From Candidatus Thorarchaeota archaeon (lineage in GTDB: Archaea > Asgardarchaeota > Thorarchaeia > Thorarchaeales > Thorarchaeaceae), in the NCBI GenBank assembly GCA_016839605.1, contig JAEOTX010000127.1:1-25580 (forward strand): a stretch of 25,580 nucleotides of DNA. Direction: 5' to 3'. The translations under genes and the position numbers were made by a program. Of the stretch, positions 5,195 to 13,722 are shown piece after piece. Below the pieces are notes generated by a model. It did not search any database, was not told the origin of the DNA, and was given only the letters and a program-made list of their open reading frames with translations. Position 1 is the first letter of the stretch. Each line of letters begins with the position of its first letter.

Positions 5195-6394
5195 TCAAAA
5201 GTCTGGAGGACTATTGTTATACCACTTGGGAATCTTCTCCATCGCAGGTCTATAACCATCTAGCACATGTCGTGAGATTACGAGTCTTTGAATCTCACTT
5301 GTGCCCTCGTATATTTCGTAGAGTTTTGCGTCTCTGAACAGCTTCTCAACTGGATATTGATCGATGTATCCGTATCCTCCATGAACCTGTACTGCCTGAT
5401 GAGCTACTTCCATAGCGGTTTCTGTCGCCATGACTTTCGCAATACTAGCCGGAATTGTAGGGTCCATTTCGTTGTCGGCGGCCCAAGCAGCCTTTAGGTA
5501 TAGAAGTCGCGCAGCTTCGACCTTGGCATACATGTCACCCAGTTTGAAACTGACAACTTGAAAGTCCTTGAGTTTCTGATCGAATGCCTCTCTTCTCTGG
5601 ACATATTCTCTGGCGTATTCCATTGCCGCCCTAGCTAGACCCGTGGCAAAGGCTGCAATTGAAGGTCTAGTCATACTGAATGTCTGCATAGCAACCCTGA
5701 ACCCCTTACCCTCTTCACCTAGCAGATTCTCAGCAGGAACCTTCGCATCTCGAAAAACGACTGATGATGTGGTGGATGCTCTGTGCCCCATCTTCTCAAC
5801 CGGACGACCGGTCTTTACTCCAGGAGTGTCTGCGTCAACAATGAATGCACACAATGCCTTGTGTCTTTTACTTGGGTCAAGACTTGCAAAAACTGTGAAG
5901 TAGTCAGCATGAGGAGCATTTGTGATCCAGAACTTCGATCCATTGAGAACATAATGGTCGCCCTCTTTCTTCACACGTGTCTTTATTCCTGCTACATCGC
6001 TGCCCATTCCAGGCTCAGAACATGCAAAGCTCACAAATTTCAGGTCTTCTGTGAGTGGTCGCAGATATTTTTCCTTCTGTTCAGCGTTGCCAGCAATCAG
6101 GATTGGTTCAGCGCCAAGACTGTTGACATAGATACTAGTTGTCATTCCAGCACAGCCTGCAGCCAACTCTTCAACGGTTATGCACTGTTCAATGGACCCA
6201 AGACCCAGACCGCCATACTCATTTGGTATTGCCAAGTTCATTAGGCCCGCTTCCCAGCACTTCTTGATAATAGGAAGAGGGAACTCGCCGGTCTTGTCGT
6301 AATAGTGAGCGTATGGAATCATATACTCTTGAGCAAACTCGCGGGTCCTGTTCTGTAGATCAATCTGTTCTTTTGTAAGGCTGAAATCGACCAT
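5195..6394 (-). CDS. Acyl-CoA dehydrogenase
   Basis: FACSEPGMGSD, LNGSKFWITNA, KMGHRAS, QVHGGYGY and catalytic RDAKLYEIYEGTSEIQR motifs. Confidence 0.95.
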   Translation of the reverse strand: MVDFSLTKEQIDLQNRTREFAQEYMIPYAHYYDKTGEFPLPIIKKCWEAGLMNLAIPNEYGGLGLGSIEQCITVEELAAGCAGMTTSIYVNSLGAEPILIAGNAEQKEKYLRPLTEDLKFVSFACSEPGMGSDVAGIKTRVKKEGDHYVLNGSKFWITNAPHADYFTVFASLDPSKRHKALCAFIVDADTPGVKTGRPVEKMGHRASTTSSVVFRDAKVPAENLLGEEGKGFRVAMQTFSMTRPSIAAFATGLARAAMEYAREYVQRREAFDQKLKDFQVVSFKLGDMYAKVEAARLLYLKAAWAADNEMDPTIPASIAKVMATETAMEVAHQAVQVHGGYGYIDQYPVEKLFRDAKLYEIYEGTSEIQRLVISRHVLDGYRPAMEKIPKWYNNSPPDF

Positions 6395-6479
6395 AGTTCT
6401 CCCTCAAGGGATTCAACTAACAACTGGTAGAGCGTGGTGGTATAAGGCCATTACCAAATGACAAACACTGGATGAAGGA

Positions 6480-8744
6480 TTAGTTTTGGCTAGTAATCTG
6501 ACGAACTACCTCGGGAAGATTCCACTTGAGTTCCAGCTCCAGTGCACCCTCGTCAGGGCCGGGACAACGTCTTACACAGGTTCGACATGCCACGCACAGC
6601 CAGAGGTCAACCTCGACTGTTCCAAAACCAGGGGAGTCATCTGTTAAAACGATGTCACCTACGGGCTTCTGTGCTGCAAGACCTTTCACTGTTCTATAGA
6701 AGAGTGCTCTATTGACAGGTAGGCTATCGAGCTCCTCATCTGAAATGTCAAAGAACTTGGACACTTCAACCACTGGTTTCAGTTCGATTGCATCTTCAGG
6801 ACATGAAATCTCACAAGACTTACAGCCCAAACACTTGGAAAGGTTCCAATCGATTGTACCAAAGCCAAGCAAGGGAGCATAGCCCATCATTGCTTTGTAT
6901 TCATCAAGAACTGATGGTACGTCCACCTCTGCTAGGTCGTCTAGTGTGACTTTTGGTCGTGTGCTAGGAATCTTAGCACGTGTACGATAAGCCAACGACA
7001 CAGCGGATCTAATCTTTTCCTCTATTCCTGTGAGTATGTCTTCTCCAACGACATTTCCTTCAATCGTGATCTTGATCAGCGTGTCGCGACCCTTTGATAG
7101 GGTTTCTAACGCATTAGCCACCTTACCAATGTCTTCAGCCTTCAGATCTTGGAGAAGCGATTCAAACTCAGAAGATGCCTCAGTGAGTTGAAGTGCCAGT
7201 GAACTTGCAGTCTCAATTGTGAGTTCAGCTTCCGTAGGTGTCCTTGGAACATCATAGAGAAGATAACCATGGCTCTCGCCAGGAGAAGTGAGTAGCTCGT
7301 CCCTCTTCATACGAAGCAGATGTTGCAGAATCCGGTTCTTCGGGATGCTAGTCTTCTCTCCAAGGTCCTTTGCAGTCATTGCTCCTAGTTCGCGAATGAG
7401 TATGAGAATTGTTCCCCGTTCAAGCTCGTTGTCCAGATAGCTGGACATCATTCTCTCATAGACCTCTGGGTCCAGTTTCTCACCATAGACATTGGTTCCT
7501 GAAACCAGATTGGGTCCTTTTTCGAGGGTTATCTTCAGTCGGAATCTTGCAAAAGCCTCGAGCCCTGCAGAAACTAGTAAGCGTAAGTCTTCAGAGCTAT
7601 CAGCAGGTGAAGATTGCAGAACTGCTTCGGTTGCTTGGTCAACCGTTTCACGCAGATTGTTCATGGATTCGGCAAGGACTGTTTCATCATATTGACCAAT
7701 TTTCTGAAGCCTTCCTAGCAAGGGCTCCATTCTCTTGACTGAATCGACTACAGAAGATTTTGTATCACCTTCAAGCGATTTTCCCATTCCATTCAGCTGT
7801 TGTAGTATTCTCTTGAACACCAATGTGGAAGCAGGAATAGCCTCAAGAACGCGCGAGAACACCGGTGCATCCTCGTCAAGACCAACCATTTCAACCTCCC
7901 CTCTTTGAATCATGCTCACTATGGCGGTCTGTATATCGGAAGATCGTGCGTTCATCAGGTGGCTAATCTCTAAGACAGTACGTGAGCCCATCTTACCAAG
8001 GATAAAGATGATGACTCCGCGTCTGAGTTCAAGCATTATATTTTCGGATACTAGCTGCAAAGCTCGAGTTTCATCAATGCGACCCTCCCGAATCCCTCGC
8101 TTGACTTGAGCAGTCGTTCTAAGAAATGGGCCATATCTTGTCTTAGTACCTAGCTTCTGGAGGGCATCTAGGGCTGACGCGGGATCATCTTGAATTCCAG
8201 ATACAGCCTCTGATATTGACGCAACAAGAGTCTCTAGTTCAGAACTCGCCTCTTCTGCAGCAGATTTTGCATTGGTTTCATACCCTGTGATGACTGTTTC
8301 AATCTGTGTGATTAATTCTGATACAGGACTCAGGAGGGAATCTATGTCGACTGCAGTATCAATTTCTTCTATATCATCTGTGCCTTCCAAGGTTTCTGAT
8401 CTGGTGTTTATCGAAGTAAGAAGACCACGAGTGCTTTCTGTGTCACGGATGGAAACAGCTTCCTGAAGATGAGATATTGCTTGCTTTAGTAGCCCCCTAT
8501 CGGCTATTCGAGAAATGATATCAGAGCTTTCTGTGGCTTCTAAGAACTGCTCGAAATAAGCATCAGGGAATGCAAGAATCTCAGCTGCAAGTGGTTCTAG
8601 TTCCGTCTTGAGGTTGGCTATCTCTTCGCTAACTTTGCTTAGTGGAATGACAGCCTCTTCTTTCAGGCCACCAAGTGCTAAGACCATGTCCATCATGCGC
8701 CTTCGTTTCGGTGCCATATCAGACAGGCTCTTGGATTCGCTCAC
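6480..8744 (-). CDS. Uncharacterised ~754-aa protein: helical/coiled regions, two winged-helix-like repeats, C-terminal 2x[4Fe-4S] ferredoxin domain
   Basis: CLGCKSCEISCP (6798-6833) and CVACRTCVRRCP (6561-6596). Two 50-aa wHTH-like repeats at 7881-8030 and 7278-7427. GTG start at 8744 overlaps the upstream TGA (GTGA) after the RBS GGAGGTGA. Confidence 0.8.
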   Translation of the reverse strand: MSESKSLSDMAPKRRRMMDMVLALGGLKEEAVIPLSKVSEEIANLKTELEPLAAEILAFPDAYFEQFLEATESSDIISRIADRGLLKQAISHLQEAVSIRDTESTRGLLTSINTRSETLEGTDDIEEIDTAVDIDSLLSPVSELITQIETVITGYETNAKSAAEEASSELETLVASISEAVSGIQDDPASALDALQKLGTKTRYGPFLRTTAQVKRGIREGRIDETRALQLVSENIMLELRRGVIIFILGKMGSRTVLEISHLMNARSSDIQTAIVSMIQRGEVEMVGLDEDAPVFSRVLEAIPASTLVFKRILQQLNGMGKSLEGDTKSSVVDSVKRMEPLLGRLQKIGQYDETVLAESMNNLRETVDQATEAVLQSSPADSSEDLRLLVSAGLEAFARFRLKITLEKGPNLVSGTNVYGEKLDPEVYERMMSSYLDNELERGTILILIRELGAMTAKDLGEKTSIPKNRILQHLLRMKRDELLTSPGESHGYLLYDVPRTPTEAELTIETASSLALQLTEASSEFESLLQDLKAEDIGKVANALETLSKGRDTLIKITIEGNVVGEDILTGIEEKIRSAVSLAYRTRAKIPSTRPKVTLDDLAEVDVPSVLDEYKAMMGYAPLLGFGTIDWNLSKCLGCKSCEISCPEDAIELKPVVEVSKFFDISDEELDSLPVNRALFYRTVKGLAAQKPVGDIVLTDDSPGFGTVEVDLWLCVACRTCVRRCPGPDEGALELELKWNLPEVVRQITSQN

Positions 8745-10906
8745 TCGGTCACCTCCATCCACTTGCCGGCTGTCCCTTTATGCACTGGTGTCGGACCAAG
8801 CTCTTGAGCTCGTTTCACCATCTCACGAATCGCGCTTGTGAATCTGTCAGGTTCAGCACTGAACATCCGGAACATGTCAACTCGTTCGCCTTTCCAGCCA
8901 ATGGCATTCAGTATATCACGAGTGACATCTACTTGGACTTGGGCAATCTCATTGCCAGTTCCACCAATATGACATCGGTCCGTTTCACAGGCGGCAATCA
9001 TCACTGTGCTAGCCCCGTGCTCAAAGGCTTTCAGGATATCAATGATAGAAACTCTTCCTGCACAGGGAACTGGAATCAACCTAGAACTGGCAGGATATTC
9101 CATCTTTCGTGTACCAACAATGTCTATCGTTGAAACAGAACATTCCTCGCAATAGAAGCAAACAGTGATTGGATATTCAGAGTCAGCTTCGTTAAGAACT
9201 GCTTCTATTTCTGACCAGAGCTGGGAGTTTGATAGGAAGTTGAGCTGTGTCGCTCCGGAGGGGCATAGGCTTTGACAGACACCACAAGAATGGCAATTCA
9301 GAATGTCTATTGCTGCTTTGAAGAGGATCTTTTGTGCTTCGTCTTCTTCCTCTGCATCTGTCTGTTCTATCATTAGAGGAACACCGCGGGGACATTGCTG
9401 TGCACAAAGACTGCAACCTACACAGTCATCGACATCAAGGACTGCACCCCGCGCAACCTTCTCGATTTTACCTCCCTGAAGCTCGTTATGCAGGACAAGT
9501 GCTGCAGCTTGAGCATCTGTGACTGCTTCAAAGACAAATTGTGGTCGTGTGATTGCACCTACTGCAACTACACCACGTCTGCGTGTTTCAGTTCGTCTTA
9601 GCTTGCCATAGAGCTCTTTGATATGGCCATCTTCCTCAAGTGTATAACCAAGCGTTTCAGACAGCTCGGCTACACCATCTGACGGAAGAATTGCAGAAGA
9701 GAGAACTACAAGATCGGGGGTGCTTTCCAGATATTGGTTAAGAAGGGAGTCATAGATACGAACATGAGTTTCATCATCACTCTCCCAGACCATGCTGACT
9801 CTGCCACGTATGTAATCGACTCCCCGTTCTCGTGACTCCTTGTATATCATCTCATTCTCAAATGGCACACGAATATCCATGTATACAACCTGTACGTTTG
9901 TATCAGGATTTCTCTCAAGAATCTCTAATGAGTTATCAATTGCAAATGTGCAGCAGAGTTTGCTACAGTCACGTTTGTAGTCCTCTGACCTACTGCCAAC
10001 ACATTGAACCATTATTACCTCATTCACGGGTTTCCCGTCTGAAGGACGTACCATGTTGCCTTCTGTCAGCATGCGAGAGAGCTCGAGCTGTGTCACGACA
10101 TTCGGATTCTTCCCATATTGATACTCGTCCATCATGGTTGGTTTGAACTCTTGGAATCCTGTTGCTAGTACTACTGCTGAAGTCTGCAAAGTCTTCTCGT
10201 CTTCATCATCAGGAATGTTATAATGAAGTGTGAAACTGCCCAACTCGCCCTCAACAAACTTCACAGTTGTGTCTGTCATCACATCGATGTTCTTGTCGTT
10301 CTCAAGAGCGTTGAGTCGGCCACTGAAGACCTCTTTTCCAGACTTGCCAGTAGGAGCGACAACTGGCAATTGGACAACATGACCCCCAACACTCGATTCA
10401 CGCTCCACCAGGGTCACATGATAACCTAAGTTAGAAAGACTGAGCGCGGCTTCGACTCCAGCAATCCCACCCCCAATCACTGTCACATGCGCTGGGACTT
10501 CTTTCATTTCAGAAACAATGGATGTTGAATCAACGGAACGTGCTAATGCACCTCTGATCATGTCCAGTGATTTCTTGGATGCTTCTGAAGGATCGTTGTG
10601 GACCCATGCAGAATGCTCACGGATGTTAACATATGTGATTCTCGAGGGGTCTTTGCCTTGAGACTGCAGATATTGATCAATACGAGGTTGTATCTTCTGG
10701 CTTGTGCAGGCTGCGACCACAAGTCTGGCTTCATTCTCATCTATCAGCTTAGCTATGGCTTCAAGTCCGGAATCTTGGCAGCCAAGGTCGTGCAAAGTTA
10801 CTGAACCGGCTAAGTCCAGCTTCTTGACCTCTGCTTCCAAGAATTCGTAGTCTAACTTCAACTGTTTTCCACAAGTACAGAGGAGGACTGGCGATTTATT
10901 GCTCAC
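8741..10906 (-). CDS. hdrA: HdrA-family flavoprotein fused to a C-terminal ferredoxin and MvhD (QmoB-like architecture)
   Basis: HdrA N-terminal domain (CTCG, VVAACTS, VNIREH), FAD motif VIGGGIAG, QCVGSR...CSKLCC, two CxxCxxCxxxCP motifs, then an MvhD domain (CFYCEEC, VPCAGRV, AACETDRCH, ELGPTP). Confidence 0.88.
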   Translation of the reverse strand: MSNKSPVLLCTCGKQLKLDYEFLEAEVKKLDLAGSVTLHDLGCQDSGLEAIAKLIDENEARLVVAACTSQKIQPRIDQYLQSQGKDPSRITYVNIREHSAWVHNDPSEASKKSLDMIRGALARSVDSTSIVSEMKEVPAHVTVIGGGIAGVEAALSLSNLGYHVTLVERESSVGGHVVQLPVVAPTGKSGKEVFSGRLNALENDKNIDVMTDTTVKFVEGELGSFTLHYNIPDDEDEKTLQTSAVVLATGFQEFKPTMMDEYQYGKNPNVVTQLELSRMLTEGNMVRPSDGKPVNEVIMVQCVGSRSEDYKRDCSKLCCTFAIDNSLEILERNPDTNVQVVYMDIRVPFENEMIYKESRERGVDYIRGRVSMVWESDDETHVRIYDSLLNQYLESTPDLVVLSSAILPSDGVAELSETLGYTLEEDGHIKELYGKLRRTETRRRGVVAVGAITRPQFVFEAVTDAQAAALVLHNELQGGKIEKVARGAVLDVDDCVGCSLCAQQCPRGVPLMIEQTDAEEEDEAQKILFKAAIDILNCHSCGVCQSLCPSGATQLNFLSNSQLWSEIEAVLNEADSEYPITVCFYCEECSVSTIDIVGTRKMEYPASSRLIPVPCAGRVSIIDILKAFEHGASTVMIAACETDRCHIGGTGNEIAQVQVDVTRDILNAIGWKGERVDMFRMFSAEPDRFTSAIREMVKRAQELGPTPVHKGTAGKWMEVTE

Positions 10907-10912
10907 AATTCA

Positions 10913-12163
10913 TCACTTCCTTCCCTGGAGTATCTTGCTCACGACAGCCCTTGCTTGATTGACACTTTCAGGAACTTCTGCAGGACCCAATGCCCCACCG
11001 CAGGCATAGACGTGTTCTCCTGCCACTACTTCATTCTCAGAGATCGGGTCGGCAGGTCCAACATACCCGCTTGCTGAATTGAGGCCCAGTGAGCTGAGAA
11101 GCTCATCAGCGGCTTCTGGAGGTTCAAGTGCCGATGAAAGCACGAGAAGGTCCACTGTAAATTTGAGATATCTATTTAGTAGCGAGTCGTAGACATGAAC
11201 GTCCAATGTACCATCCTTTTGACTTTCCACTCGACTTACTCTACCCCGGACGAACTCCACTCCAGCATCACGTGTTTCGCGGTAATACCTCTCATGCTGG
11301 TCGTAGGTCCGAATATCCATGTAGACGACACTAACTCTCGAATCGTTACGTTCACTGGAGATGATGTTGGCATGTTTCAGAGCAAAGACACAACAAATCT
11401 TGGAACAGAATGGGTAGTAATTTTCGTCCCTGCTACCTACACACTGAATCATCATCACATTCTTGACTTGAGCCCCATCTGAAGGACGTACCAACGCTCC
11501 AGCGGATTCTCCATTAGGATCGAGCATCTGTGCAAGCTCAAGCTGTGTAATGACATTGGGTAGCTTCCCATAGCCATACTCATCCACCACTGAAGGCTTC
11601 ATCTCGTGATAACCAGTTGCAATGACAATATCTGAAACTGTGACTGTTTCTTCAGTTTGAATGGCACTCAGATTGATTGCTTGTGTTGGACACTCATCCT
11701 CCGCCTTTTTCGCACCATCGTCCGTTTTCTCAGGATCATAGCTCACAGCCTGCGGTTGACACTGGGGTGATGCCAAAAGAAATGCCTCTGAAACATTAGT
11801 GCAAAGACCACATAGAGTACATCTTTTGGGGTCCACATACTGAGGACCGAGGTCAAGAATAACTGAAAACTTGCCGGGCGTCCCAGAGATTCCTTTCACC
11901 CTTGTATCGGTCTTGAGGTCTATATTGGGCTGGTCAACCATTGCACTCCGGTAGAAACACTTTCGGATGCCCGGACGCCATCGATTACCCTCGAAACAAT
12001 AGAAACAGTCGTCTGTGGGAAATGCTTTGTATAATTCAAGCGCATTACCACCAATGGTTGACTTTCTGTCGATTAGGATGGTCTTGACACCGTTGTCTGC
12101 CAGCTCCACTGCTGCTGTCATTCCTGCCACACCGGCACCTATGACTAGAACTGGATCAGTCAA
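10913..12163 (-). CDS. hdrA: Short HdrA-family flavoprotein lacking the N-terminal domain (QmoA-like architecture)
   Basis: VLVIGAGVAG, KAFPTDDCFYC, partial inserted ferredoxin (CTLCGLC...CP), RPSDG, QCVGSRD...CSKICC, YMDIRT. Probable TTG start at 12163 after the RBS GAGGTGA (~416 aa). Confidence 0.88.
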   Translation of the reverse strand: MTDPVLVIGAGVAGMTAAVELADNGVKTILIDRKSTIGGNALELYKAFPTDDCFYCFEGNRWRPGIRKCFYRSAMVDQPNIDLKTDTRVKGISGTPGKFSVILDLGPQYVDPKRCTLCGLCTNVSEAFLLASPQCQPQAVSYDPEKTDDGAKKAEDECPTQAINLSAIQTEETVTVSDIVIATGYHEMKPSVVDEYGYGKLPNVITQLELAQMLDPNGESAGALVRPSDGAQVKNVMMIQCVGSRDENYYPFCSKICCVFALKHANIISSERNDSRVSVVYMDIRTYDQHERYYRETRDAGVEFVRGRVSRVESQKDGTLDVHVYDSLLNRYLKFTVDLLVLSSALEPPEAADELLSSLGLNSASGYVGPADPISENEVVAGEHVYACGGALGPAEVPESVNQARAVVSKILQGRK

Positions 12164-12176
12164 TGCTATGGTCACC

Positions 12177-13043
12177 TCAGCCGGACAGATGATCAAGGAT
12201 AGGGTCAGCAGGGACACGGTTCATGCTGAGACCTATCTCTTCCTCATTCATACCCATTGCCAAAGCCAAGATTTGCGGATACAAAAGAACTGGGAGATCA
12301 TAGACTTCTCCGTATGAGTCCTTCAAGCCCAGCTGCTGCAGATCAAGTTGGTTCCCACATGCAGGGCATACCACAGTGATGAAGACCGCACCGGCATCTT
12401 TCATTGATTTAAGTTTGTCTCGAGCAAGTCTGATGGCTAACTGCTCATTCACCGGTAGAACTGTGGCACCACAGCACTGCTTCCACAGGGGATAATCAAT
12501 TACCGTCGCACCCGTAGCATCAACCATCTCTTGTAGAATCTCAGGTCTGAATTCCGTCACGTCTAATGGACGCAAGAGATGACACCCATAATGAATAGCA
12601 ATTCCCACGCCGTCCAAAGGCTTTGTGACTCTCTTTTTGATTTCCTCGATTCCAATATCTGTGTACATTGCCTCGATAATGTGTCGAACATTGATGGAAC
12701 CCTTGAACTCTAGTCCCATCTTCTTTAGTTCGACGTTGATCTTCTTCAAATCGTCCTTGTGATGTGTGAGGTGATGGAGTACGTCTTTCAAAGATCCAAA
12801 ACAACCATTGCAAGGGGTCACAATATCATGACCGCTCTTCTCTGCGATTGCAATTGTGCGTGCATTGACTAAGAGCCAGCCAAAGGTGTCAATTGACCGA
12901 AGATTGGGGCTGCCACAGCATGCAACATCCTCAAGGTAATTGAGATTCATACCTAGAGCTTCAGCCACTTTGAACATTGCAGCCTCGTAATTGGGGTAAT
13001 TGGCTGGAACACTGCAGCCCATGTACAAGCTATAGACTGGCAT
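12177..13043 (-). CDS. hdrB: Heterodisulfide reductase subunit B
   Basis: Two CCG domains: YMGC...CCGS...TPCNGC and HYGCHLLRP...CCGA...CPAC. Start is ATG 13043 or 13055. Confidence 0.93.
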   Translation of the reverse strand: MPVYSLYMGCSVPANYPNYEAAMFKVAEALGMNLNYLEDVACCGSPNLRSIDTFGWLLVNARTIAIAEKSGHDIVTPCNGCFGSLKDVLHHLTHHKDDLKKINVELKKMGLEFKGSINVRHIIEAMYTDIGIEEIKKRVTKPLDGVGIAIHYGCHLLRPLDVTEFRPEILQEMVDATGATVIDYPLWKQCCGATVLPVNEQLAIRLARDKLKSMKDAGAVFITVVCPACGNQLDLQQLGLKDSYGEVYDLPVLLYPQILALAMGMNEEEIGLSMNRVPADPILDHLSG

Positions 13044-13044
13044 C

Positions 13045-13587
13045 TTATTCTCCATCCTCCACAAGTTTGCCTGTCCGAGTGCTTTTCAGAATCGACTGTA
13101 TGCCCTCTATAGATAGACCGGGCACTTCTGGCTCCAGGTCTAGATCCTCACGCTCCCAATCATTGATGACTTCATAGAGTTGTCCCTTGTCAACCAGTGT
13201 CTTTCCTAAGGCAAGAACGTTCTCAGGTACATGTCCCTCTTCAGCAGCTAAGTTTTTGCAGTCGAAGAATATGTCAGTAACGCGCACCTTCTGAGGACAA
13301 CGCTCTTGGCACTGGAAACATGTCAGACACTCCCAAATCTCCTTGCTGGAAAGAACTTCATCCCGCATACCAAGGAGAATCATACGAATCAGTTGGTGCG
13401 GCATGTAGTCCCATTGATTGGCAATGGGACATGCAGCAGTGCAAGTCGAACATGCAAAGCAAGCTGAAAGCTCCTCGCCGTTTGGCATACTGCTAATATC
13501 ATTGCGAAACTTAGGGTCCAGCTTAGTCATGTCAATAGGGTCAATCAGGGTAACTGGAGGACCAGTCTTTTCTTCAGTTTCTGTCAT
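13045..13587 (-). CDS. hdrC: Heterodisulfide reductase subunit C
   Basis: CFACSTCTAACP and IWECLTCFQCQERCPQKV; directly upstream of hdrB. Confidence 0.93.
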   Translation of the reverse strand: MTETEEKTGPPVTLIDPIDMTKLDPKFRNDISSMPNGEELSACFACSTCTAACPIANQWDYMPHQLIRMILLGMRDEVLSSKEIWECLTCFQCQERCPQKVRVTDIFFDCKNLAAEEGHVPENVLALGKTLVDKGQLYEVINDWEREDLDLEPEVPGLSIEGIQSILKSTRTGKLVEDGE

Positions 13588-13650
13588 GAGGGATACACCT
13601 CTAGGAAATGACCGATGCAGTGACTGAATGCGACAGCGGAATTAGGGACC

Positions 13651-13667
13651 TATATTAAAGGTTTGCA
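13651..13667 (-). promoter_or_regulatory. BRE/TATA promoter of the hdrCB-hdrA operon
   Basis: Minus strand reads GCAAAC-CTTTAATATA, about 65 nt upstream of the hdrC ATG. The RBS GAGGTG precedes the ATG. Confidence 0.55.
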
Positions 13668-13722
13668 GAAGGAACACGTTCGTGGGCGAATCAGAGGACA
13701 GGGTCTTGTAGAAAAAGATAGA

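Follow-up and report, generated by a model that had tools for sequence, protein, structure and literature searches.

A 754-residue double winged-helix and split-ferredoxin protein best read as an adaptor and electron-relay subunit of an Asgard Hdr-type complex

Results

The locus and its gene product

The gene considered here lies in a stretch of 25,580 nucleotides from a Candidatus Thorarchaeota archaeon (assembly GCA_016839605.1, contig JAEOTX010000127.1, positions 1 to 25,580), and this whole stretch is called the window throughout. It encodes a protein of 754 residues, hereafter X, in which two extended winged helix (eWH) modules alternate with long helical regions and are followed by a ferredoxin domain that is split by an insert. 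X follows the genes of an Hdr-type flavoprotein complex and is most plausibly a subunit, so far undescribed, that acts as adaptor and electron relay in an Asgard complex of the QmoAB/HdrBC type. The genes concerned are the following.

6480 to 8744, minus strand: X, the 754-residue double-eWH and split-ferredoxin protein (stop codon at 6480-6482; defined by its open reading frame (ORF), the GTGA start overlap and homologues of about 754 residues)
8741 to 10906, minus strand: hdrA::mvhD, QmoB-like, 721 residues (Pfam FlpD 3.7e-32, Pyr_redox_2 and Fer4_7; NCBIfam HdrA2 478 bits, below the cut-off)
10913 to 12217, minus strand: short hdrA', QmoA-like, with a flavin adenine dinucleotide (FAD) domain only, at most 434 residues (HdrA2 profile positions 134-556)
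12177 to 13064, minus strand: hdrB, with two CCG domains (Pfam CCG 3.1e-31)
13045 to 13587, minus strand: hdrC, 2x[4Fe-4S] (Pfam Fer4_8 3.4e-12)

The GTG start codon of X (8744-8742) overlaps the TGA stop codon of hdrA::mvhD (8743-8741) as GTGA, within a frame of 760 codons spanning 6480-8762, and the 754-residue product is backed both by database gene calls and by the N-termini of its homologues (MSxxxx..APKR). This overlap had already been pointed out in an earlier interpretation made without database searches, referred to here as the sequence-only reading, and 61 of 63 Thorarchaeota loci have retained an NTGA overlap between the two genes. The protein as a whole is acidic, with an isoelectric point (pI) of 4.7 and a net charge of -41, and a sequence scan of X found no membrane-like segment. 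There was no second copy of X in its own genome, where the sole other match was a generic ferredoxin-domain match. With regard to the operon partners, it was also seen that the longest ORF of hdrA' starts with a hydrophobic 19-mer (KD19 2.05) upstream of GxGxxG and overlaps hdrB by 41 nt; the real start of hdrA' is probably further downstream.

Two winged-helix modules and a split ferredoxin domain

Along the chain of X, in the order from the N- to the C-terminus and all on the minus strand, we distinguished the following parts.

8643 to 8714, minus strand: N-terminal motif APKRxRMxDMxLxLGGLKEExxIP, residues 11-34 (invariant columns of the Thorarchaeota family alignment)
8088 to 8642, minus strand: helical region 1, residues 35-219, acidic with a net charge of -22 (AF2 helices, pLDDT 82-93)
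8130 to 8141, minus strand: T-R-Y-G loop at the end of helical region 1, insertion point of an NfnB-type module in variants (junctions in P0129, P0205 and P0285)
7845 to 8087, minus strand: eWH1, residues 220-300 (AF2 topology, VIA-align, and hhalign against module 2)
7590 to 7844, minus strand: helical region 2, residues 301-385 (AF2; weakly like helical region 3, hhalign P 1.7e-4)
7479 to 7589, minus strand: module 2 leader LRLLVSAGLEAFARFRLKITLEKGPNLVSGTNVYGE, residues 386-422 (common to long-MvhD tails and nearly invariant in the Thorarchaeota family alignment)
7245 to 7478, minus strand: eWH2, residues 423-500 (module profile against the ArsR/HlyU winged helix-turn-helix (wHTH), HTH_5, and AF2 topology)
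6975 to 7244, minus strand: helical region 3, residues 501-590 (AF2 helices, pLDDT 80-93)
6846 to 6974, minus strand: pre-ferredoxin linker YRTRxKxPSTRPKV..DVPSVLDEY..MGYAPLLGFG, residues 591-633 (invariant columns; GFG kept in Helarchaeota relatives)
6483 to 6845, minus strand: split 2x[4Fe-4S] ferredoxin domain, residues 634-754 (Fer4_7, eight invariant Cys; predicted docking face onto HdrA::MvhD)
6798 to 6833, minus strand: ferredoxin motif 1
6597 to 6797, minus strand: ferredoxin-domain insert of 67 residues (68 between the flanking C648 and C717)
6561 to 6596, minus strand: ferredoxin motif 2

The sequence-only reading had started from two segments of 50 residues, 201 residues apart and with 10 identities in 50 positions, which were thought to have a winged-helix pattern. 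The segments start at residues 245 and 446 of the 760-residue frame and align as described, with an identity that is weak when taken alone, as the maximum in 611 other ungapped registers was also 10. The duplication is nonetheless real as judged from family profiles, since those of eWH1 and eWH2, built from Thorarchaeota and Helarchaeota sequences, matched each other in hhalign at a probability of 98.2% (E 2.9e-14 over 79 columns), whereas the controls of modules against helical blocks gave P of 0.1-0.4. Both modules folded as winged helices of helix-strand-helix-helix-hairpin topology in the AF2 models, with a pLDDT of 69 for the whole of X and of 80.5 when residues 186-502 were refolded alone. 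Superposition of the first winged helix (WH1) on ArsR, MarR and Z-alpha domains gave VIA-align Z scores of 10-12.7 and root-mean-square deviations (rmsd) of 1.1-1.4 A over 60-62 residues, the best having Z 12.7 and rmsd 1.2 A over 62 residues. The profile of module 2 matched the wHTH structures of HlyU and NmtR at E of about 1e-5 (9e-6 for HlyU), and Pfam HTH_5 matched 10 of the 27 members of the alignment of module 2 with long-MvhD tails. X by itself stayed under the Pfam gathering thresholds for wHTH families, with TrmB at 18.0 against 25.6, HTH_20 at 13.7 against 27 and HTH_9 at 13.7 against 23.4 (HTH_9 E 0.067).

X has only eight cysteines (638/641/644/648 and 717/720/723/727), all of them invariant from Thorarchaeota to Helarchaeota, and they make up the two CxxCxxCxxxCP motifs (C638 to P649 and C717 to P728 in the 754-residue numbering) that had been seen at the outset as split by an insert. 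With 38.6 bits against a cut-off of 27, Pfam Fer4_7 places this part of the protein among the 2x[4Fe-4S] ferredoxins, in which the spacing of 68 residues between the motif cysteines is atypical. The basic motif APKRRRMMDM..LGGLKEE (8643-8714, minus strand) was the best-conserved part of the N-terminal half of X. It occurs as IPxKRK in Helarchaeota relatives, is also kept in both of the NfnB-insertion forms described below, and lies outside the predicted interface.

Searches with the protein as a whole agreed with the earlier statement that no characterised protein of such an architecture was known, as no characterised family matched full-length X. A sequence search of the Protein Data Bank (PDB) with all of X gave only generic ferredoxin matches at E 0.005 or worse. 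Foldseek with the predicted models gave marginal matches, the best for the whole chain being the multi-winged-helix scaffolds RPC82/RPC62 (E 1e-3 to 1e-2, TM 0.08-0.21, about 0.1 for the full 754-residue model), of which RPC62 resembles X in having tandem eWH domains with helical linkers, and also UFL1-DDRGK1. No published description of X was found in a literature search.

Family, distribution and operon linkage

More than 247 homologues of about 754 residues were found in databases, with 59-100% identity to X and all in Thorarchaeota-type bins, and they were labelled only as '4Fe-4S dicluster domain-containing' or 'ferredoxin/MarR'. An exhaustive HMMER search with residues 7-632 of X against 1.84 billion cluster representatives gave only 39 matches, in three groups: the Thorarchaeota family with fragments of it, about ten relatives of 734-747 residues, and small proteins matching only residues ~361-500. 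The 734-747-residue proteins are full-length relatives from Helarchaeota with approximately 20-22% identity to X, and the X family, as delimited by these searches, is thus found only in Thorarchaeia and Helarchaeota, i.e. only in Asgard archaea.

In about 55 Thorarchaeota, counted as species representatives with enough flanking sequence, the order of genes was GINS, a 93-residue ORF, hdrC, hdrB, hdrA', hdrA::mvhD, X and an acyl-CoA dehydrogenase (ACAD) gene. The window also holds further replication genes nearby, these being cdc6, the PolD small subunit, PCNA and primase in addition to GINS. In Helarchaeota the order was instead hdrA', hdrA::mvhD, X, hdrC and hdrB, preceded by further giant HdrA paralogues. 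The hdrA' gene always preceded hdrA::mvhD in the loci of both lineages, and X stood directly behind this pair in both, although hdrCB had moved. That X stays behind hdrA::mvhD across this rearrangement and a sequence divergence of about 80% is the strongest genomic argument for X being a part of the enzyme, and the synteny in the two lineages bears out the linkage of homologues to hdr/mvhD genes on which the sequence-only reading depended. An observation of another kind was made in two metagenome contigs carrying a distant X relative of the Helarchaeota-type subfamily (P0135), where gene calling had split MvhD (FlpD) into pieces of 57 and 48 residues (L001 3524-3904 and L002 2645-3025), the counterpart in a third (L003) being one ORF of 128 residues. 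These split calls could be due to an in-frame UGA codon for selenocysteine, which has been reported for Asgard MvhD/HdrA (PMC11227280).

The second module in MvhD tails and as a stand-alone protein

Residues ~361-500 of X matched the C-terminal tails of FlpD (MvhD) proteins, with phmmer E values of 4.5e-6 to 1.8e-4 at whole-library scale. Two kinds of protein made up the small matches, some (P0156, P0162 and P0163) being MvhD (FlpD) extended by a C-terminal tail and the others stand-alone proteins of approximately 115-185 residues. Module 2 of X, the long-MvhD tails and the stand-alone modules have one pattern in common, a leader of the form (F)RLR/K..GK...(G)NVYGEKL followed by a winged helix, so that a likeness to a C-terminal extension of some MvhD proteins, suggested previously, could now be confirmed. 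X itself has no FlpD domain and is not fused to MvhD, which instead ends the preceding gene, with X starting in the MvhD stop codon.

Long MvhD proteins and stand-alone modules were found in hdr operons of bacteria and archaea, beside HdrA, HdrBC, NfnB-fused HdrA or MetFV. A degenerate DNA pattern for GNVYGEKL gave 89 stretches, 14 of them with true modules. In one bacterium the module lies before hdrCBA-mvhD-metVF, and at a second locus it lies before genes for a 1003-residue HdrA, MvhD and FrhB-like proteins. Stand-alone copies of the NVYGEKL winged helix, of 125-184 residues, occurred in Syntrophorhabdaceae, Syntrophobacterales and Thermodesulfobacteriota (L090, L111, L166 and L168), where their neighbours were HdrA-NfnB-HdrA fusions of 1466-1484 residues (Syntrophorhabdaceae and Syntrophobacterales), HdrBC (Syntrophorhabdus) or an HdrA-GcvH fusion (Thermodesulfobacteriota).

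A structural precedent for such a module as a docking piece is given by BamF of the class II benzoyl-CoA reductase from Geobacter metallireducens, in which a winged helix-turn-helix interfaces with BamI (bioRxiv 10.64898/2026.04.10.717634). The annotated bacterial module loci held no recognisable Bam cluster, and the link to BamF is therefore literature-based. Long-MvhD adaptors, BamF included, share with X a helix, the (G)NVYGEKL loop and a winged helix, and are likewise encoded in hdr-type operons. They differ in that the module of X is found in the next gene, is duplicated, is set in about 400 residues of helices and is joined to a 2x[4Fe-4S] domain of its own.

Variants of X with an inserted NfnB-type module

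Some other Thorarchaeota have variant forms of X. In one of these, with 972 residues (P0129), the first 160 residues are kept along with the whole of the chain from eWH2 to the C-terminus, and an NfnB/GltD-type domain (Fer4_20 and Pyr_redox_2) replaces residues ~212-423, i.e. eWH1 and helical region 2, with junctions in the TRYG loop and just before VYG. In another, seen in P0205 (1219 residues) and in a gene at locus L074, the NfnB-type module is purely inserted after TR(Y/F)G, with both winged helices and the ferredoxin domain kept and with the gene in its normal hdrCB-A'-A::mvhD context. The inserted module matched NfnB (4ylf_B, E 8e-98), Pyrococcus NfnI-L (5jca_L), StnC (8oh5_C) and the Bfu-type NfnA (9n5u_A), the E values against these four PDB chains being 1e-88 to 1e-120 and those against the NfnB, StnC and NfnA chains 1e-98 to 1e-120. 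These NADPH-binding flavoprotein modules are thus like the domain inserted in the 972- and 1219-residue forms, and are absent from the 754-residue X of the window. That the 972-residue form is an assembly chimera was considered and rejected, as forms of approximately this length made up about 40 clusters from many samples and the 1219-residue intermediate lies in a normal operon. The NfnB-type variants of X may be a new result.

A second large hdr/mvh cluster was noted on contig C18 of the same genome (locus L088, 1-17001), with genes for HdrA (660 residues), MvhD, a short HdrA', a 1129-residue HdrA-NfnB-like fusion, HdrC, HdrB, a 912-residue HdrA'-NfnB-like fusion, HdrA (588 residues), MvhD and a hydrogenase small-subunit-like protein. 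Its NfnB-like fusions indicate that NfnB-type modules are recurrent partners of Hdr proteins in the source organism, the genome of which also encodes a free NfnB-like protein of 480 residues.

Predicted docking of X onto HdrA::MvhD

Structure prediction of X together with the HdrA::MvhD protein, which the sequence-only reading had proposed as a check, gave a predicted contact between the two. Full-length X was modelled with residues 485-720 of HdrA::MvhD (window 8747-9454, the C-terminal ferredoxin and MvhD domains) using our own alignments, and each of the three runs reached an ipSAE of 0.85, whereas none of three controls exceeded 0.00. Of 80 solved complexes 58 attained this mark, as did 2 of 110 mismatched pairs, counts that are only rough in this case because our own alignments were used. 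The runs had at least 72% of contacts in common, with a partner pLDDT of at least 78.

X contributed to the confident interface mainly with its insert (659-707), and also with the cluster loops at 639-647 and 722-729. The partner contributed the cluster loops 494-504 and 547-551 in the C-terminal ferredoxin domain of HdrA and, from MvhD, residues 620-629 and 654-671 as well as its conserved C-terminal tail (707-717). The split ferredoxin domain of X is thereby predicted to dock in a cleft that the C-terminal ferredoxin domain of HdrA forms with the MvhD domain, and to do so chiefly by way of the insert. Such an interface would explain the conservation of the insert and would set the clusters of X and of the HdrA arm side by side. 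This predicted docking may also be a new result.

Discussion

X as a probable docking and electron-relay subunit

We consider it probable that X belongs, as a soluble subunit without catalytic function, to an Hdr-type flavoprotein complex specific to Asgard archaea (HdrA', HdrA::MvhD, HdrB and HdrC), and that it serves in docking and electron relay. Two readings had been offered from the sequence alone, and of these the scaffold or electron-relay subunit was strengthened by the conserved linkage to hdrA::mvhD in two deeply diverged Asgard lineages, by the homology to long-MvhD tails, by the NfnB variants, by the predicted docking and by the soluble, acidic character of the protein, whereas the redox-sensing DNA-binding subunit gained no support. 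X is produced in step with HdrA::MvhD by way of the conserved NTGA overlap and would extend the iron-sulfur (Fe-S) wire of the mobile arm formed by the HdrA ferredoxin domain and MvhD, with the cluster-binding loops of X and HdrA predicted to touch. Its helices and winged helices may form a platform on which interchangeable modules for electron donation or acceptance are docked, and in the forms with an inserted NfnB module such a module would be linked to NAD(P)H. The winged helix of BamF offers an analogy, as it clips BamI onto class II benzoyl-CoA reductase, and in this view the winged helices of X would bind protein and not DNA.

Several observations weigh against this assignment. The 754-residue form has just its two [4Fe-4S] motifs, with neither a substrate-oxidising cofactor site nor a donor site of its own, and its ferredoxin domain was modelled poorly in X alone (pLDDT 29-45). 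The ipSAE value is the model's own confidence, and the favourable outcome could in part be a memory of solved Hdr complexes that have [4Fe-4S] subunits at MvhD or at the HdrA ferredoxin domain. The PDB sequence matches of the module 2 profile included no BamF chain, and the winged helices are bona fide ArsR-like folds, with which DNA binding by X would be compatible.

It is tentatively possible that X is more specifically a modular 'socket' for swapping electron-input modules in Asgard Hdr-type complexes, with the platform recruiting a separate donor in the 754-residue form and with an NfnB-type bifurcating flavoprotein built into the same loop elsewhere. If so, the low-potential [4Fe-4S] branches of NfnB-type and HdrA-type bifurcating flavins would be wired together via the split ferredoxin domain, in a coupled-bifurcation design otherwise described only for class II benzoyl-CoA reductase, and acyl-CoA/enoyl-CoA redox chemistry in Thorarchaeota might be served.

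Regulation, scaffolding and the neighbouring dehydrogenase

The bearing of the winged-helix folds on DNA binding needs to be weighed together with the promoter of the operon, upstream of hdrC.

13649 to 13669, minus strand: B recognition element and TATA box (BRE/TATA) of the operon promoter, TCTGCAAACCTTTAATATAGG (unique in the window; the hdrC ATG follows about 72 nt after the TATA)

X could in principle be a redox-sensing transcription factor, with the redox state of the Hdr chain sensed by its clusters and with two ArsR-like winged helices that bind DNA, for example at the hdr promoter, so as to tune expression. Fe-S-containing wHTH regulators do exist as a class (IscR, Rrf2- and ArsR-type sensors), the modules have genuine ArsR/MarR-like wHTH folds, and the recognition helix and wing of the second winged helix carry several basic residues, net +1 in X. 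Against this, each eWH module has a net charge of -3 (family means -2.4 and -5.2) in a protein of very low pI, and X shares the fold of ArsR/SmtB and MarR regulators, from which it differs in its acidic surfaces, its lack of a dimer-type regulator architecture and its enzyme-operon context. The hdrC promoter has a conserved BRE/TATA, which across hdrC upstream regions reads TCTGCAAACYTTTAATAT (window 13649-13669) and the core of which, AAACTTTTAA, is present in 35 of 54 Thorarchaeota upstream regions and followed by a GGTG motif resembling a ribosome-binding (Shine-Dalgarno) site; k-mer analysis and TATA-anchored alignment of these 54 regions found only the BRE/TATA and GGTG, and no conserved operator, dyad or palindrome. 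Elsewhere, members of the module family are fused to the electron-transfer adaptor MvhD or found beside HdrA/NfnB flavoproteins, and the conserved NTGA overlap fits co-production with an enzyme subunit better than it fits a low-copy regulator. An oxidoreductase domain can, furthermore, replace eWH1 with the rest of X kept, and the presence of a redox module within the body of X, difficult to explain for a regulator, fits a subunit that presents an electron donor or acceptor. We thus regard a regulatory role as very unlikely, X in the best reading not being a regulator and its winged helices most likely being protein-docking elements. Still more improbable in our judgement is a purely structural protein, an oligomerisation or tethering scaffold of winged-helix repeats in the manner of RPC82/RPC62 or UFL1-DDRGK1, in which the clusters only stabilise the fold. 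These two were the best whole-chain fold matches and X does have long helical regions between its modules, but the eight cluster ligands and CP motifs are invariant from Thorarchaeota to Helarchaeota, the predicted interface brings together the cluster loops of X and of the HdrA ferredoxin domain, and the insertion of an NfnB-type redox module points to electron transfer.

The gene downstream of X allows yet another proposal.

5195 to 6394, minus strand: ACAD, downstream of X and a conserved neighbour in Thorarchaeota only (Pfam Acyl-CoA_dh_1/N/M; synteny)

According to this proposal, X would link the Hdr-type complex to the ACAD, with the platform holding the dehydrogenase and the ferredoxin domain carrying its electrons, giving an acyl-CoA/enoyl-CoA oxidoreductase that is independent of electron-transferring flavoprotein (ETF) and possibly bifurcating or confurcating. 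The ACAD gene follows X by 56-163 nt (median 88) in 65 Thorarchaeota loci, also follows the 972-residue NfnB form, and is better conserved than X (71-93% identity). This adjacency is of little weight, because the unrelated GINS gene and the 93-residue ORF are equally syntenic across Thorarchaeota, and the Helarchaeota relatives have no ACAD beside X. The spacer, which is 85 nt long in the window (6395-6479, minus strand), contains a GAGGGAG motif and, some 50 nt ahead of the ACAD start, a conserved (A/G)CTTATAC box, which suggests that the ACAD has its own promoter. The same genome also encodes five other ACADs and EtfAB, the latter on contig C95, by which the argument that the ACAD must use X for want of ETF could be ruled out. 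The functional link between X and the ACAD is consequently weak, and we find the proposal unlikely.

Comparison with known systems and implications

With X taken as a docking and electron-relay subunit, its operon is most readily compared with Qmo systems. In sulfate reducers, QmoA is a short HdrA-like flavoprotein and QmoB is HdrA-like with an MvhD-like C-terminus. The operon studied here shares with QmoAB-HdrCB and QmoABC the combination of a short, FAD-only HdrA' with HdrA::MvhD and HdrCB, in proteins that appear soluble; it differs in having the extra 754-residue subunit, which has no QmoC-like membrane or haem part, and in that no apr or sat genes were present in the window. In methanogen Hdr supercomplexes, for which Mvh-Hdr and Fdh-Hdr-Fmd structures have been solved, the donor modules or polyferredoxins are MvhAG, FdhAB and FmdF. 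X resembles these in occupying the operon slot after mvhD and in the predicted position of its [4Fe-4S] clusters against the C-terminal MvhD/HdrA ferredoxin arm, while the 754-residue protein has no catalytic site and no sequence relation to them beyond the generic ferredoxin motif.

Asgard archaea are the closest known archaeal relatives of eukaryotes, they have many Hdr paralogues, and Hdr-type flavin-based electron bifurcation is central to their proposed energy metabolism. Methanogens attach a hydrogenase or a formate dehydrogenase at the arm made of the HdrA ferredoxin domain and MvhD, and it is on this mobile arm that X, a conserved and lineage-specific extra subunit, is placed by prediction. 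The findings also call for caution with regard to the annotation of such proteins as 'MarR/ArsR regulators', as is currently the case at JGI. X adds a second independent case, after BamF, of an ArsR-like winged helix apparently recruited as a docking element of redox machines, and one physiological partner, NAD(P)H, is named by its variants with an NfnB insertion.

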